Of a DNA stretch of 64,000 bases, positions 27,037-33,969 are shown in pieces. The stretch is from NCBI GenBank assembly GCA_051439505.1, contig JBFRWI010000009.1:1-64000 (forward strand), read 5' to 3'. The position numbers and the translations under genes were made by a program. The notes under the pieces were generated by a model. That model ran no database searches. It had not been told where the DNA came from and saw only the letters and a program-made list of their open reading frames with translations. Source of the DNA: Hormoscilla sp. GTDB taxonomy: Bacteria > Cyanobacteriota > Cyanobacteriia > Cyanobacteriales > Desertifilaceae. Each line of letters starts with the position of its first letter. Positions within the stretch are counted from its first letter, which is position 1.

Positions 27037-27210
27037 CAGCGTCTACATCCGATGATAAGGGGTTGCTAATTGCTAATGTTAAATGATTGCTCTCTCTAGT
27101 CATTAGTAGTCCTGAATAGATGGATTTACTCTTGGCAATTAGCAATTAACAATTAGCAATTAGCAATTTTAAACAATTGGCTGCTATCATCGGTAAAAAT
27201 GTGCAACGCC
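27037..27210 (-). mobile_element. MITE-like element family D (reverse orientation, one end degenerate)
   Basis: Reverse complement begins GGCGTTGCACATTTTTACCGATGAT as in 21382; a short related palindrome lies at 26905-26960. Confidence 0.65.
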
Positions 27211-27238: not shown

Positions 27239-29209
27239 TCAGGTTTCATCTTCAGCTAAAGTAATCAAGGCATCATCGAGAGTGAGATTTAGCTGCTGAT
27301 GCAGACTGGGAATTAAGTCAATACCAAAGTTTTTATTCTTATCCTCAGCTTGGGCACGAAGTTTTACACCAATACAGAGCTCGTCCCGGGCCAAAGCCGC
27401 CTCGACGCAGTCAGCAAAGGTAAGTTTGCTTAGTAGTTTGGGTGGAAAGTATAGGGACAGGGGCTTGATGTACAGTTCGCAGCCATTGATGTCGAATAAA
27501 TGATTGTAGATTAACATCACATCAGGCTCTTGGGATGCCTGGGCTAAAATTTTAGACACAATTTGATTAGAAAGCAGGAAGTCTTTAACACCGGCTTTAA
27601 TTACCAGGTCCGTGTCTTCAGAGTTAACTATCTCCGCAATTAATTCCGTGGTGATTTGCTGGCCCGTTTTCCGGCTATACTCTCGGAAAATTTGTCGCAG
27701 TTGCAGTAAGACTGTCAGGGTCTTGGCATCAATTTCATCGGGGTTTTCCCCACTGCCAGCTAAAATGGGGATGCTGTTAAACTCATAGGGCTTTAAGTTC
27801 CACAGTTCCTCGACTGAGTCTACATTCACCTGCATTGCTTCCATCCTGACATCGGGGTAGGATTTGGCTATCTGGTCAAATTCAGCTTGCATCTGCGGGG
27901 TTAAATCCTTCACCGCCAGGTTTACTTGCGAACCACGCAAGGCGTATTGGGCATATTCTCTCAGGGCGATCGGGGCTTTCGGGTTCCAACCAATCAGCAG
28001 ATGCTTTTCCGTTTGGCGAACTGCGCAGCGTCGATAGTCAGCATAGCCGAGGTTCCGAGGCCGTGCGAGAATTTCGGGATCAAACTTGATGGTCGAGTCA
28101 TCTTCTGCGAGGACAATAATTTCATCATCGTCAGCTAGCTGGTAATCTTTACTCGGTCTGAGGGAAATAGTGCCATCTGCATGACGCACCCCTAGGGGCA
28201 TACTTCTGAGGAAATGAAAGATCGACTCACCGAAAGAGAGATTCGGCCAACCGGTGGAGGGGCGATAGAAATAAAATTCGTTTCCTTCAAAGCCCACCAA
28301 GTTTAAGTATACTGCCGCTAGCCCCACGTTGCGGGAAGTCTGAACTAAAATCCGAGCTAAAATATCGGCTTCATTCAGAGTGGTGACTGCTCCGGGAGCA
28401 ATGTTTTCCGCAAGAATGCGATATTGCCCTGAGTGTAATTCTACCACTATTGCTGGCAAGGAGGAGCCTTCCTCATTTGCTGCTACCACAGCCAGAATGG
28501 CCTTCACCACCCGAGCATCGGATAAAGTCTTGAATTCCTCGGGGTCCGATCCCTTGGCATCATTCAAGATAATCACAGATTTAGCCAGTTGGACTGCGAC
28601 TTTATTCAGATTCTGCAAATTCGTGACTGCGCCATTTCTGGTAACTACTCTGGTAGTTTTGAGGTCTCCGATTTCATTGCGAATAAAATCATCCATATCC
28701 TCCTTATCTGCTTCCGACAGGATGACAACAACTGCATCTGGTTCTGATTCATTCGCCAACACTAACTCTGTAATAATATCTCCGCTCCGGTCATTGAATC
28801 CTAAAATTAAGGTATGGTTTTCTTCCACTACCATGCTTTTACCCTTGCGCAGCAATTGCAGTCGGGATTCAAATTCCTCAGTAATGAAGGCTACCAGACT
28901 GGAGAACAGCACTAAGCCGACAAAAATCGCGATCACGCCCACCAGTTTGGCAGCAAAATTGGCATCGTCCCCCGTGTCTCTCAGCCCGATCAGCTGCACG
29001 AATATTTCCCATGATAAATCAGATGAATTTTCAATATATTCATTGGGAAAAAAGACTTCTGCCAAGTAACGGCATATTGCCAGTAGCAAAAAGGCTACAA
29101 AAAAGGCTGACAATAAAGCCAGAAATACTGACAAGCCCCCACGGGACATAAAGTTGTCAAATTTGTACTGGAGGCGATTTTGCCAGGAAACTTTGTTTGA
29201 CGTTGACAT
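27239..29209 (-). CDS. CASTOR/POLLUX (DMI1)-like cation channel with tandem RCK-like domains
   Basis: RLQYKFDNFMSRG, TM helices, LRKGKSMVVEENHTLILG, ARILVQTSR, FEGNEFY, G.ELYIKP, ELCIG, ITLAED. Confidence 0.85.
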   Translation of the reverse strand: MSTSNKVSWQNRLQYKFDNFMSRGGLSVFLALLSAFFVAFLLLAICRYLAEVFFPNEYIENSSDLSWEIFVQLIGLRDTGDDANFAAKLVGVIAIFVGLVLFSSLVAFITEEFESRLQLLRKGKSMVVEENHTLILGFNDRSGDIITELVLANESEPDAVVVILSEADKEDMDDFIRNEIGDLKTTRVVTRNGAVTNLQNLNKVAVQLAKSVIILNDAKGSDPEEFKTLSDARVVKAILAVVAANEEGSSLPAIVVELHSGQYRILAENIAPGAVTTLNEADILARILVQTSRNVGLAAVYLNLVGFEGNEFYFYRPSTGWPNLSFGESIFHFLRSMPLGVRHADGTISLRPSKDYQLADDDEIIVLAEDDSTIKFDPEILARPRNLGYADYRRCAVRQTEKHLLIGWNPKAPIALREYAQYALRGSQVNLAVKDLTPQMQAEFDQIAKSYPDVRMEAMQVNVDSVEELWNLKPYEFNSIPILAGSGENPDEIDAKTLTVLLQLRQIFREYSRKTGQQITTELIAEIVNSEDTDLVIKAGVKDFLLSNQIVSKILAQASQEPDVMLIYNHLFDINGCELYIKPLSLYFPPKLLSKLTFADCVEAALARDELCIGVKLRAQAEDKNKNFGIDLIPSLHQQLNLTLDDALITLAEDET

Positions 29210-29369
29210 ACTATTGTGTTTCTCCACGATCGGATACCATCGGTTTGGGGGTAGTATAGAGGAATTGACTACCTCCAGTCAAGTCGGGGTATTTTGGTGC
29301 TACTTGACAAAGAAAGGGTTACGCTAGGGTAGCAGGGTACTCACCAGTATAGTACCCGATCGCCATGAA

Positions 29370-30488
29370 ATGACACCAGACGAAGAGAAATTTATGACTA
29401 AGAGAAGGCCACGCCCGTCTATCGGTTTTTTAGCAGGAGTGCTATTCCTGAGTGCGACCGCCTGTGGCGGCAATCAAAAGCAAAATACTACTACCCAGAT
29501 AGTTGCACCACCCCCAGAAGAACGATTGAGTAACTATGTACTGGCCGATGGTTCCAGTACCGTCTTCCCGATCGCGGAAGCCATGGCACAAAAGTTTATG
29601 AAAGCTAATCCGACAATTGGGGTAACGGTGGGCATATCCAGTTCGGGAGTGGGGTTCAAGAAGTTCTGCATTGGAGACACTGATATCTCTAACGCTTCTC
29701 GTCCCATTAAGAAATCCGAGATCGCATTTTGTGAGGCCAACAAAATTGAGTACGTGGAAATTCCCGTGGCCTTCGATGCGATCGCGGTGGCGGTCAACCG
29801 CTACAATGACTGGACAAGCTGCCTTACCCCACAGCAGTTGGGCAAAATTTGGGAACCTGCTGCAGAAGGGGAAGTAGTCAACTGGCAGCAGATCTCAGAG
29901 GAGTACCCCGATGTACGTCTGGGTCTCTATGGTGCTGAAAGTGATTCCGGTACCTACGATTACTTTACCGATGCTATCACGGGGGAAGAGGGTAAAAGCC
30001 GCAGTGACTACACCGCTAGTCCCGATGATATCGTCACCATTCAGGGGATCGAGTCGGAGTATGGCTCTTTGGGATTTATCAGCTTGTCTTCCTATGAAAA
30101 AAACAAGGATGCTTTAAACTTGATTGCCATTGAAAATGAAAGCGGCGAATGCACCGAACCAAGCCCAGAGACGATCGGCAAAGGCACCTACAATCCCTTG
30201 GCACGTCCCTTATTGCTATATATCAACAAGGAGTCTCTAGAAAAAATACCTGCGGTCAAAGCCTTTGTTGAGTACCTTCTCAATGCTGAACACCAAGCTG
30301 TAATCTCAGAAGCAGGATATGTACCTTTGCCAGAGAATCTGTTACTAAAAGTGCGGGAACGGATTGCCGATCGCATCACTGGTTCAATGTTTGTAGATGG
30401 GTCTTCAGTTGGTGTCGATTTATCAGAGAAGCTGTCGGAAACAAAAAAGAACAAACCAATAAACAGCCCTGAATCTAACGGTAATTGA
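29370..30488 (+). CDS. PstS-family substrate-binding lipoprotein (divergent, no pstCAB adjacent)
   Basis: Lipobox-like SATAC, DGSSTVFPI, GFKKFC, DISNASR, DSGTYDYF, YNPLARPL. Confidence 0.88.
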   Translation: MTPDEEKFMTKRRPRPSIGFLAGVLFLSATACGGNQKQNTTTQIVAPPPEERLSNYVLADGSSTVFPIAEAMAQKFMKANPTIGVTVGISSSGVGFKKFCIGDTDISNASRPIKKSEIAFCEANKIEYVEIPVAFDAIAVAVNRYNDWTSCLTPQQLGKIWEPAAEGEVVNWQQISEEYPDVRLGLYGAESDSGTYDYFTDAITGEEGKSRSDYTASPDDIVTIQGIESEYGSLGFISLSSYEKNKDALNLIAIENESGECTEPSPETIGKGTYNPLARPLLLYINKESLEKIPAVKAFVEYLLNAEHQAVISEAGYVPLPENLLLKVRERIADRITGSMFVDGSSVGVDLSEKLSETKKNKPINSPESNGN

Positions 30489-30570
30489 TTAGTCTCATCT
30501 CGCACTGGGTATAGGAAACCCGGTTTTTTGCTCGTACCGGGTTTCCGAGTTTCCCCAGGGAGAATCTCAA

Positions 30571-32739
30571 TCAAGCAAATACCAAAATCGTGATTACCAG
30601 CAATGTCTTCAGAAGTGTAGGCCAGTAAAGCAACTTTGATATCAAGTTATCCTTATACTTGATGAAAGGAGCGTTAGGATGAGAGAGCAACAGGATAGCA
30701 TTAACTGCCACCAGGAAAATGTAAAAATAGATCACGAAGTAGAAATACTCGAAGTAAAGAATTCCTTTCGTGACGATCTGTTCTCTCACGGCGATCTGGT
30801 CGAGGATGACAATAAAGACAAAACCAGCACAAGCTGCCAAAACCTCCGATGCCTTCTCCTCATCGGCGATCAGCAGCATCGCAAAGAGCAGAGTGACGAC
30901 AACGAAGAGTGGTCCGACTCTCGAAATAAACGGACCGATGAAATCCCTTTGCAGCACGATCGTGAAATTCAGTTCGGGAAAGTTAGTTTTGAACACATTA
31001 CTTTTGATGCCAAAATTGGTATCATAGGTTTTGAACCTGTACTCGAAAAAACTATCACTCAGATTCCAGTTGCCCAAGACAATATCTTTATCTACACCAG
31101 GTTTAGTTCTGGGATTGATCACTTGGTAGCCCCCGAGGTCTGGAACCAGAATTACCTGGCGGTTTAATTCCCGACGATTAAAGTCCTGGTGTAATAACCT
31201 AATCTTGACATCTTTATAGTCAAAGGGATAATTGGAAAAATCTAAGTCCTGACGCAAGGTAGCTTCAACATACCAACCAATCACCTCAACATCATCATTT
31301 TCCTCCTGGTGGCGATAAGCTTCCGTCACTTCCAAATCATTGGCATCAATAGCATCGGGTAGGATAAAACCACGCTCCAACTCATCATGGATTCCCTCCT
31401 GGTATTCCTGCCAGATATAGCCAGTCACGAATACGTCGTTAGAACTGGTAAAATCCAGGGACTGAATATAAACTCCCGTGGGTACTAACAGCGGTGGTTT
31501 CTGGTTTAATTTGGCGCTTAACTCAACTTGAGGAAGCAATAACTGATCTACGCCAGTCTCATTCAGCAGCAGATTCCGAGTCGAGGTATAGGTACGTGTT
31601 TTGATCGCCAAACTCCAGATAAATCCGATTTCTGCTATAAACAACAGGCTGGCAGTAGAGGATAGTACACTAAGACGCTTGACAGTACCCTTGTCAGTCC
31701 GGAATAGGAGGACAAAGAGAAACACGAAAAACCACACAAATGCCAGACTGAGGAAGATGAGTTGGCGTCGCGTGGTTTGGTTGTCGGGCAAAACTTCGTC
31801 CTGAATAAAGACTACTCCCACCACCCATCCATTCTGATTTGCTTGTCGCAGGAATACCCAGGAATTTTGACCCGTGATGTTATCGCTCAAATCTGCTTCT
31901 ACCGGTTCGCCACGCAAGGCTCTCGCTACTAAATCTACTAAAGGACGAACTTGTGATTCGTTGCGATCGTATACGAGATCGAAGATGTTTGCCTGACTTT
32001 TGACATACTCTTCATTGGGATGATAGAGAAAATTTCCCGTCCGAGAAACTAGAAAGCCGTAGCCAGTTTTGCCGAGATCGAGGGACTTGACTATATCTGA
32101 GATCGTCTCCACAGAATAGTCGGCGTAGACTATTCCTCGCGGACGCTGCTTGCGATCTCCTCGACTATAAAAAGGCGCTAAATATCCCACTGCTGGCTGA
32201 TTGAATAAAGAATTGTCCTGCCAAAAGTATGGTTCTCCCCAATGAGCCCCCTTGCTGAGAGTGTTCCGATACCAAGCATACTTAGGGCGAGTGTAGTTGT
32301 ATTTAACTTCCAGGGATTGCAGTTCGCCGTTTAATCTGGCATAATAGGGCGCATACAGCATCACATTCGGATCGTAGGCGCGCGGTTCATAGGCAAGGCC
32401 CACATCTAAAAGCTGAGGCTTTTTCTCCAGTTCTGCTTTGAGTCGGCTTAATACCTGGGCGTCATTTAATCTGCCCGAAGTCAAATCGTTGGCGATCGCC
32501 AGGGTTGTGTCTTTAGCCACACGCAGTTCTCGGTCAATCTCCAAAGCCGCCCGGACTGTTTGTCGCTTGGCTGTTTTTCTCGCCTCTGAGATTATTCGCT
32601 GCTGTTCTCGCGAGTACAAAAACAGCCCGCCTGTCGCCAAGACGAAAGTGGTGGCGCAGAGGAGCAATGACGTGTAAAATGTCAGTTGTTGCCACGGTTT
32701 CTGTTTCTGTTTCTGTTTCTTTTTGACTTTCTGTTTCAT
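30571..32739 (-). CDS. Cache-domain-fused pentameric ligand-gated ion channel (Pro-loop receptor)
   Basis: TM-dCache (YAPYY...WY...WGEPYF...GIVYAD, LGKTGYGFLVS)-2TM, then ECD (VPTGVYIQSL, GYIWQ, FSNYPFD Pro-loop, LQR) and four TM helices. Confidence 0.8.
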   Translation of the reverse strand: MKQKVKKKQKQKQKPWQQLTFYTSLLLCATTFVLATGGLFLYSREQQRIISEARKTAKRQTVRAALEIDRELRVAKDTTLAIANDLTSGRLNDAQVLSRLKAELEKKPQLLDVGLAYEPRAYDPNVMLYAPYYARLNGELQSLEVKYNYTRPKYAWYRNTLSKGAHWGEPYFWQDNSLFNQPAVGYLAPFYSRGDRKQRPRGIVYADYSVETISDIVKSLDLGKTGYGFLVSRTGNFLYHPNEEYVKSQANIFDLVYDRNESQVRPLVDLVARALRGEPVEADLSDNITGQNSWVFLRQANQNGWVVGVVFIQDEVLPDNQTTRRQLIFLSLAFVWFFVFLFVLLFRTDKGTVKRLSVLSSTASLLFIAEIGFIWSLAIKTRTYTSTRNLLLNETGVDQLLLPQVELSAKLNQKPPLLVPTGVYIQSLDFTSSNDVFVTGYIWQEYQEGIHDELERGFILPDAIDANDLEVTEAYRHQEENDDVEVIGWYVEATLRQDLDFSNYPFDYKDVKIRLLHQDFNRRELNRQVILVPDLGGYQVINPRTKPGVDKDIVLGNWNLSDSFFEYRFKTYDTNFGIKSNVFKTNFPELNFTIVLQRDFIGPFISRVGPLFVVVTLLFAMLLIADEEKASEVLAACAGFVFIVILDQIAVREQIVTKGILYFEYFYFVIYFYIFLVAVNAILLLSHPNAPFIKYKDNLISKLLYWPTLLKTLLVITILVFA

Positions 32740-32793
32740 TCTGTTAATTGCTAATTGCTAATTTACCGATTCTCAATTTTAAATTCTCCATTC

Positions 32794-33969
32794 TCAAAAA
32801 CCACTGATGTTGATTAAAAACCCAAACACAGCACCACCCAAAACTAGCCATGCTGCGTTAATTTGAAAGCGAATGGCTCCAATAGCTGCGGCAATAGCAA
32901 TGAGGATAGTTGCTATATCAATCAGGGTACCTCGTGCCAACTGAATTGTCACCACTGCCATTAAGGCTACGGCCCCAGCATTGACCGCATCTAAAAATGC
33001 TGATGTCCACTTGGATGCCCGCAAGCGGGGAATCAGGGGATTTAAGGCAGCAACAAATAAAAATGAGGGCAGGAATATTCCCATTGTCGCAACTGCGGCA
33101 CCAGGTAAACCAGCAATTAGGTAGCCAATGAATGTAGATGTGGAAAGCACCGGACCTGGGGTGAATTGACCGATCGCGATCGCATCCAGCAGTTGCTGCT
33201 GAGTCAACCAACCATAGTCTCTGACCAAGCCATTTTCCAGAAAGGCCACCAGGACATAGCCACTACCAAATAAAATGCTTCCCACCTTCAGGAAAAATAA
33301 CCCCAACTGCCACAATGGCACCTGAGTTGCAGTCTTAGCAGCAACTGAGATCGCGGTTATGTCTGACAGGGCCGCACTGCTAGTTAACCCCAGGGCTACC
33401 AAGGCAGTATTCTGATGATTATCTCCTGCCGCCAGTCGCAGGCCGATCGTCCCCAAAACTCCCCCCAATAATAGCGCTGCTACCTGGTTTAATCCTAAGA
33501 ATAGGGAAATGGCTACGCCCAAGGCAATAATGAGCAATTTCCAGTTTTTCACTGCCTTTTTCCCCAGACGCCACAAAGCATTCAAGATAATTGCCAGCAC
33601 AGCAGGTTTAATGCCGTAAAGTAAAGGAGCAACTTGGGGTAGAGTGCCAAAGGAGACATAAACCCAGGCCAGGATAGCAGTGATAGAAACTGCTGGGAGA
33701 ATAAAACAGACCCCTGACACCACCAAACCGGGCAAACCTTTATAGATATAGCCGACATGGATGGCCATTTCGGTGGAATTGGGACCGGGAATGAGGTTGG
33801 TAGCACCAATTAAATCCAGGAAATGTTCCCTGGTTAACCACTGGCGTTTTTTGACGACCTCCTCCTCCATCATGGCAATGTGGGCGGCGGGGCCACCGAA
33901 GCCGATCGCCCCTAGTTTCAGAAATAATTTTGCCAGTTCGCCCAGATGCCCTTGATTTGAGTTTCTCAT
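32794..33969 (-). CDS. chrA: Chromate efflux transporter (long-chain CHR)
   Basis: FLKLGAIGFGGPAAHIAMM, PGPNSTE, FLKVGSILFGSG, GQFTPGP. Confidence 0.93.
   Translation of the reverse strand: MRNSNQGHLGELAKLFLKLGAIGFGGPAAHIAMMEEEVVKKRQWLTREHFLDLIGATNLIPGPNSTEMAIHVGYIYKGLPGLVVSGVCFILPAVSITAILAWVYVSFGTLPQVAPLLYGIKPAVLAIILNALWRLGKKAVKNWKLLIIALGVAISLFLGLNQVAALLLGGVLGTIGLRLAAGDNHQNTALVALGLTSSAALSDITAISVAAKTATQVPLWQLGLFFLKVGSILFGSGYVLVAFLENGLVRDYGWLTQQQLLDAIAIGQFTPGPVLSTSTFIGYLIAGLPGAAVATMGIFLPSFLFVAALNPLIPRLRASKWTSAFLDAVNAGAVALMAVVTIQLARGTLIDIATILIAIAAAIGAIRFQINAAWLVLGGAVFGFLINISGF

Follow-up and report, generated by a model that had tools for sequence, protein, structure and literature searches.

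Analysis of a 64,000-nucleotide stretch of DNA from Hormoscilla sp. (contig JBFRWI010000009.1, positions 1 to 64,000; referred to here as the window) identified a conserved pair of genes that code for a pentameric ligand-gated ion channel (pLGIC) fused to a dCache domain and for a SphX-type PstS lipoprotein. In the window the pair is flanked by genes for a CASTOR-like channel and a ChrA-family transporter, and an earlier note on this DNA had proposed that the four genes form one ion-signalling module. The conserved core is the two genes, not the four-gene module. We consider it somewhat better than an even bet (probability of about 0.55) that the lipoprotein is a dedicated partner of the channel, which it gates or tunes after capturing phosphate or a related ligand. 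This interpretation builds on gene identities and folds, matching clades of the two proteins, linkage in multiple orientations, the loss of Pho-box-like sites, and the intact phosphate pocket of the window copy.

A PstS-like gene was located within 8 kb of the channel gene in 22 of 69 genome loci, and pstC or pstA in none of the 69. The channel-PstS pair covers nine cyanobacterial lineages (this genus, Okeania/Dapis, an Oscillatoria group, a group comprising loci L063, L074, and L075, Scytonemataceae, Nostoc, Spirulina, Xenococcus, and Prochloraceae) and is found in five arrangements, the two genes being convergent (directly or across a Peripla_BP_5 gene), divergent (directly or across three intervening genes), or in tandem. 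Gene order around the pair varies even within the genus, and other genes flank pstS in congeners. Among 76 mostly short metagenome loci there were no PstS neighbors, one CASTOR neighbor, no ChrA neighbors, and one distant pstC/pstA pair. Conservation of the neighborhood, which the earlier note had put forward as a check, was thus found for the channel and PstS genes, and not for the ChrA and CASTOR genes, which are rarely adjacent to the channel.

The channel proteins and the PstS proteins of the pair form matching clades. In a tree of 141 channel rows, every PstS-linked channel fell within one 36-row clade (FastTree support, 98), with 24 of 36 rows linked inside the clade and 0 of 105 outside it. 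When loci had 3-kb flanks on both sides, the proportions were 19 of 24 and 0 of 57, respectively. The tree was built from the C-terminal 330 residues, and frames with fewer than 330 aligned residues or falling short of the C-terminus were dropped, so that the broken channel copies of congeners were left out. Five of the 12 unlinked rows within the clade lie at a contig edge, and the other seven are from Okeania/Dapis genomes with an orthologous pstS elsewhere. A PstS tree of 84 rows gathered the 25 linked proteins into one 35-row clade that has no pstC-adjacent member, and the other 10 rows of this clade come from channel-bearing genomes. A more careful tree (37 rows) supported the linked clade at 94/94; the PstS trees took 37 and 46 of 104 rows. 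None of 20 further top PstS matches from a 401-genome sample, chosen regardless of linkage, joined the linked clade, in a control that consisted of the top 30 matches and could miss a divergent member in a channel-less genome. Fisher tests were set aside because kin are not independent. The nearest relatives of the linked clade are operonic SphX-type proteins, which suggests that the linked PstS was recruited after duplication of a gene in a transport operon.

The window PstS scored 263.8 bits against TIGR02136 (cut-off, 206.6). The likely start of the gene is the ATG at 29394, which gives a protein of 364 residues, and the lipobox cysteine (Cys32) is invariant in 39 rows. In a mapping by alignment and spacing, not on a liganded model, the protein keeps 8 of 8 phosphate contacts of Clostridium perfringens PBP-1 (PMC5381212) as well as the Asp-Arg-Thr triad of SphX (PMC13614923). 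It is 53 to 60% identical to operonic SphX and shares the S-type pocket of Synechocystis SphX, in which Thr17, Ser63, Asp89, Thr148, Asp173, and Arg231 correspond by spacing to T64, S110, D136, T195, D220, and R279 of the window protein (PMC13614923). Because all contacts are kept in the window copy and are incomplete in many of the linked proteins, phosphate is our best guess for the ligand of the window copy; for the clade as a whole this guess is less secure.

The linked proteins are set apart from their operonic relatives by their glycine loop (G-x-G-G-G): none of the 25, the window PstS among them, has it intact, versus 26 of 28 operonic ones; ordinary orphans outside the clade kept the loop in 15 of 20 cases. 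They also differ in regulation. In a simple consensus scan that allowed ≤2 mismatches, with the consensus checked against PMC1906773, a tandem Pho-box-like site preceded 16 of 27 genes in pst operons and 2 of 34 in the linked clade; the corresponding counts were 6 of 20 for the remaining orphans and 17 of 500 for background genes. The best Pho-box pair upstream of the window gene had 5 mismatches, versus 1 and 2 for the genes of the pstS-pstS-pstCAB operon of this genome (contig C59) and 1 for a second orphan TIGR02136-like gene (contig C46). As the earlier note had observed, neither pstC nor pstA is located near the window pstS, which has neither of the two marks of Pst/Pho membership, pstC/pstA adjacency or tandem Pho boxes. 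The Synechocystis sphX, in contrast, belongs to the pst1 cluster and is controlled by SphR (PMC13614923). In three lineages an SBP_bac_3 domain is fused to PstS. A separate PstS-like group from Nostocales genomes (L327, L330, L332, and L343; three of the four adjoin pstC) keeps only four of the eight phosphate contacts and may carry another substrate.

Hydropathy and an AlphaFold model (predicted local distance difference test [pLDDT] score, 80.9) gave seven transmembrane (TM) helices for the window channel. TM1 (about residues 23 to 43) is followed by a periplasmic dCache domain (about 45 to 318), a TM2-TM3 hairpin (321 to 379), a beta-sandwich extracellular domain (ECD; 414 to 598), and M1 to M4 (601 to 721). 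With this layout the dCache domain, the ECD, and the C-terminus would all face the periplasm. The channel half had no match in Pfam and PDB sequence searches, and the model matched GLIC and GABA-A receptors by fold (Foldseek). Because the channel domain escapes Pfam, such proteins are filed merely as Cache-domain proteins. The beta-sandwich ECD followed by four TM helices that characterizes pLGICs is accompanied by a Pro-loop ([F/Y]PxD, as defined in PMC4795631) at Y504-P505-F506-D507 (YPFD, 504 to 507), a pre-M1 arginine (R598), and an M1 proline (P610). The proline and aspartate of the Pro-loop were present in 76 of 76 aligned family rows, in which W443, P505, D507, R598, and R652 are invariant. 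Within the clade, P610 is kept in 33 of 35 rows, E632 before M2 in 34 of 35, and F642 in M2 in all 35.

Of the pLGIC family, 88% has a proline in the M2-M3 loop and 79% has a basic residue at M2 0′. The window channel has neither: Gly659, which is near-invariant, stands in place of the proline, and valine is at the inferred 0′ position, prime numbering having been assigned manually. These are majority features and not absolute requirements of pLGICs. By the rules given in PMC549065 and PMC4795631, the channel would be Phe-gated and probably cation conducting, and PMC4795631 itself states that the selectivity of prokaryotic members cannot be safely predicted. The structures nearest to the dCache domain are amine-type dCache domains. 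At the terminal position of the amine or amino-acid binding motif of dCache_1AM and dCache_1AA sensors there is an acidic residue (D207 in the window protein, glutamate in 11 of 12 clade representatives, and mostly asparagine outside the clade). The distal dCache pocket of the linked clade is further altered by a three-residue loop insertion and G185.

Other features of the channel family were noted. Tandem duplicate dCache-pLGIC genes at L073, L085, L188, L190, L111, and L231 could form heteropentamers, and P0205, P0214, and P0267 have two or three dCache domains. The Spirulina channel (L065 to L068; for example, L065:6213-10088) carries an extended TPR region at its N-terminus, and its gene faces one for an SBP_bac_3-SphX fusion. 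At L097, L102, L107, and L109, channel genes outside the linked clade adjoin a recurring three-gene set, two of them with a CHASE3 chemoreceptor. By eye, we take this three-gene set to resemble ergothioneine synthesis genes.

The possibility that the two proteins meet physically was evaluated from fusions and from structure prediction. A binding protein is fused after M4 in 5 of 27 long family members scanned (P0204, P0326, P0217, P0227, and P0320), in three unrelated arrangements (SBP_bac_5; Bmp with ABC_sub_bind; Peripla_BP_5). A predicted complex of channel residues 42 to 600 with PstS scored 0.35, and the best of 3 controls scored 0.00. The mark applied to such complexes was reached by 116 of 157 solved pairs and 2 of 215 mismatched pairs, and with a score of ≤0.60 by only 18 of the 157 solved pairs and by both mismatches. 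Runs agreed in at least 0% of contacts with no agreed interface, and partner pLDDT was at least 82. The complex prediction, which the earlier note had put forward as a check, gave weak support that shifts the odds little. The suggestion in the same note that the binding protein serves a channel instead of an ABC permease gained genomic support from the matching clades, the linkage, the loss of Pho-box-like sites, and the fusions.

Several observations weigh against a dedicated partnership. Two thirds of the wider channel family has no PstS neighbor, so the channel in general does not need PstS, and adjacency was lost in seven Okeania/Dapis loci that kept both genes. Congeners G002 and G004 have an intact pstS and a broken channel gene. 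Support for the linked PstS clade was just below the starred mark, and the linked proteins are on long branches. The phosphate pocket is complete in 10 of 25 linked PstS proteins versus 25 of 28 operonic ones, and 19 of 35 clade members have the full SphX triad set; this erosion fits relaxed selection as well as a change of ligand. The dCache pocket, with its own clade-specific changes, may bind a small ligand directly. No SphX-channel fusion was found among 62 long matches, a search crowded by long proteins and thus weak evidence. Partner distances were not significantly correlated when one pair was taken per lineage (rho, 0.47; 303 of 5,000 shuffles); co-divergence by distance correlation over 24 pairs (rho, 0.81) was rejected because it was driven by close kin.

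An alternative explanation for these patterns is synteny without partnership, in which a redundant sphX landed once beside the channel gene and was then carried by descent or block transfer while it drifted. A single origin would account for both clades, the pocket is eroded in 15 of 25 linked proteins, the linkage is gone in the seven Okeania/Dapis loci, and convergent genes need no shared promoter. However, the adjacency outlived at least 3 local rearrangements, with partners that are only 38 to 60% identical and flanking genes that changed. The pstS frames of the clade are open save for one frameshifted Xenococcus copy, none of the 20 added top matches joined the PstS clade, and fusions to binding proteins recur in the channel family. 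We consider synteny alone unlikely, but the most probable of the alternatives.

It is also possible that the orphan is an ordinary extra phosphate binder for the distant PstCAB and that the channel senses its own ligand via dCache, so that the two share a physiological setting at most. The complete contacts and triad of the window PstS and its similarity to operonic SphX would fit such a role, and unlinked pstS or sphX copies are common in cyanobacteria (PMC1906773, PMC13614923), as the copy on C46 illustrates. However, ordinary orphans mostly keep the glycine loop and some of them keep Pho-box-like sites, which the linked clade does not, and it is left unexplained why one channel clade alone has a PstS neighbor. 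This explanation seems improbable.

The CASTOR-like protein has TM1, a pore helix, TM2, RCK1, and RCK2, and it matched the gating rings of LjCASTOR and MtDMI1 by sequence (E value, 8e-48) and by fold (target-normalised TM-score, 0.90). Both PF06241 and the tandem RCK gating ring of the CASTOR/POLLUX/DMI1 family are present. Of the two Ca2+ clusters of the family, the Ca(II) glutamate and the E-D-D cluster are kept, as in the plant proteins (PMC6697748), and the Ca(I) residues D442 and D444 are replaced. The window protein has two TM helices and a pore helix, in contrast to the four predicted TM helices of plant channels (PMC6697748), and lacks the Ca(I) aspartates. Its clade (46 to 71% identity; 22 of 401 genomes) also differs from the plant proteins in a pore loop of the type G-L-R-D-(T/A)-G-D, which contains arginine (window positions 28950 to 29010). 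Bacterial homologues at 30% identity have an L-D-x-G-T-M-G-G-D-type loop instead, and selectivity may differ. No study of bacterial CASTOR-like channels was found in a literature search whose coverage largely excluded subscription papers.

The CASTOR-like gene is an optional neighbor and not a required part of the pair. Among the 69 genome loci it was within 8 kb of the channel in 5, all from one lineage, Okeania/Dapis. CASTOR within 8 kb of the channel in two families (the window; L048, L055, L056, L071, L072, and L207) hints at an old cluster, and L071 has the complete order CASTOR, MscS, channel, pstS, which is split two ways in relatives. A larger ion-signalling island, in which the CASTOR-like channel (with MscS in Okeania/Dapis) acts as an amplifier or counter-ion path for the pLGIC-SphX sensor, could be proposed from these loci and from the occurrence of the channel in 13 of 22 close-CASTOR genomes versus 46 of 401 overall (kin are not independent). 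However, the genes are adjacent in only 2 of those 13 genomes. Close CASTOR homologues were found in 27 of 50 channel-bearing genomes, a count that covered 50 of the 69 channel loci, and were adjacent in 5. Neither the channel nor PstS nor ChrA was found near other close CASTOR homologues (0 of 20 loci), and CASTOR was not found in four of four congeners or in those genomes of Spirulina, Nostoc, and Prochloraceae in which the pair is present. The CASTOR tree, a quick one with an unresolved backbone on which one and two origins of the CASTOR adjacency are not distinguished, did not join the window copy with those of Okeania. Such an island is thus doubtful, and no better placed than an ordinary phosphate binder. 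A gene for MscS lies divergently upstream of the pLGIC gene throughout Okeania/Dapis (L048 to L061, L071, and L072; for example, L056:4037-5182), where it sits between CASTOR and pLGIC with three channel families in <9 kb; MscS is also near pLGIC in family f37 (L176, L180, and L181).

The least tenable proposal, a four-gene oxyanion module that includes ChrA, could appeal to a chrA that has the orientation of the channel gene and lies 54 bp upstream of it, and could share its transcript here, and to a chrA adjacency common to close relatives, but ChrA was beside the channel in only 2 of 69 genome loci, both from this genus, and in none of the 76 metagenome loci or 60 further regions, and congener G001 retains chrA where both core genes were not found. 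The ChrA adjacency is thus local to the genus, and ChrA is a bystander. Together with the CASTOR counts, these numbers already largely refute the four-gene module of the earlier note.

The preferred explanation, a dedicated binding protein for the channel, would operate as follows. A SphX-type phosphate-binding lipoprotein may have been duplicated from a pstSCAB-type ancestor, escaped control by the Pho regulon, and come to serve a single clade of dCache-fused channels as a dedicated extracellular partner. The membrane-anchored protein would capture phosphate, or a related ligand where the pocket has drifted, and in its closed form would dock on the periplasmic crown of the channel, at the dCache domain and/or the ECD. 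The signal would then travel through the coupling of the Pro-loop and pre-M1 arginine to the M2 gate at Phe642, and cations would flow, with Glu632 located before M2. The output would be a membrane-potential or Ca2+ signal, which could plausibly steer gliding in benthic filaments. A more ambitious version, in which cyanobacteria convert external phosphate directly to an electrical or Ca2+ signal, outside SphS-SphR, by means of a channel resembling neurotransmitter receptors that is gated in trans by the repurposed lipoprotein, with an ancestral island in Hormoscilla/Okeania that has CASTOR as amplifier, is speculative and rather unlikely, if still worth entertaining.

Previous studies have described parts of this arrangement, and the statement in the earlier note that no such system was known was too strong. 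Tasneem et al. (PMC549065; 2005) reported Cache-fused prokaryotic pLGICs, with MCP-N and Cache domains before the ligand-binding domain and four TM segments, in conserved neighborhoods with stand-alone PBP-II genes, and likewise proposed that the binding proteins pre-concentrate or sense ligand. The Cache fusion was attributed there to Methanosarcina, Cytophaga, and Microbulbifer, and the cyanobacterial members had the simple architecture. The text of that article, Figure 3 and additional files aside, names neither PstS/SphX nor phosphate; here, in contrast, the match is between specific clades of SphX and of the channel, with a loss of Pho-box-like sites. The window channel shares with GLIC, ELIC, and DeCLIC the fold of ECD and four TM helices, the Pro-loop, and the pre-M1 arginine, and differs from them by three additional TM helices and the dCache domain, a candidate separate ligand-binding subunit, glycine in place of the M2-M3 proline, and no basic residue at M2 0′.

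Relay of ligand occupancy from a solute-binding protein (SBP) to a dCache domain and signalling from PstS to a receptor are both established. In PstS-CtpL, LuxP-LuxQ, and HptA-HptS, a periplasmic binding protein relays its occupancy to a sensor that is often dCache-like, and phosphate-loaded PstS activates CtpL (PMC8050422). CtpL uses the transporter's own PstS, whereas the window copy appears dedicated. The four families of SBP-stimulated receptors listed in PMC8050422 are chemoreceptors, kinases, GGDEF/EAL proteins, and Ser/Thr kinases, and the term "ion channel" does not occur in that review. No paper that joins a pLGIC with PstS/SphX was found in a literature search that left subscription papers largely outside its coverage. 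The pairing of PstS/SphX with a pLGIC appears to be new as a variant and not as a category, Cache-fused pLGICs with binding-protein neighbors having been known since 2005.

Open reading frames and family and structure searches bore out the position and orientation of the four adjacent genes given in the earlier note (Table 1). The CASTOR-like gene is divergent from pstS, with 142 bp between them. Two concerns about the locus were rejected. None of the four genes is a pseudogene, all frames being open, and the junction between CASTOR and pstS is not an assembly artefact, as contigs of relatives from two other studies (∼90 to 95% identity; X8 record 25 and X10 record 11) bridge it. The pstS-channel and channel-chrA junctions are likewise bridged by relatives' contigs from two other studies, so the gene order is real. 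X10 is an RNA run available as contigs only, from which neither strand nor expression can be read. A promoter scan of the locus (6 sites versus 11.3 in shuffles) was uninformative, and a scan for terminator-like hairpins found 14 versus 9.1 in shuffles. A dispersed repeat with short heptamer runs (window positions 27050 to 27210) lies between a slr1796-like gene and CASTOR; it is present many times over in congeners and is covered by reads to a very high depth. In each of the four congener genomes (L025, L026, L027, L202, and L011) the channel gene either is broken or was not found, and chrA or a DUF4915 gene is also interrupted in G002. Congeners G001, G002, and G004 are presumably sponge symbionts.

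Table 1 Genes and other features of the locus in the window
Feature	Position	Strand	Description	Role
CASTOR/DMI1-like channel gene	27239-29227	-	662 aa; PF06241 Castor_Poll_mid and Slo-like RCK	Optional neighbor
SphX-type (S-type) PstS-family lipoprotein gene	29370-30488	+	372 aa; TIGR02136 above cut-off	Core
Terminator-like hairpin	30504..30524	+	Consensus match only; within 82-bp gap of convergent pstS and channel genes	
dCache-fused pLGIC gene	30571-32739	-	722 aa; dCache_1 by Pfam, channel half by fold	Core
ChrA chromate-transporter family gene	32794-33969	-	TIGR00937	Bystander

For most prokaryotic pLGICs, to our knowledge, neither the natural ligand nor the cellular role is known. The pair described here points to a candidate route for the ligand and to a partner protein, and it has hosts in culture (Xenococcus sp. 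PCC 7305, Brasilonema sp. UFV-L1, and Spirulina sp. CCY15215). Should the channel prove to be gated by the binding protein, ion channels would be added to the classes of SBP-stimulated receptors, four in number, listed in PMC8050422, and cyanobacteria would possess a fast sense of phosphate apart from the Pho regulon.

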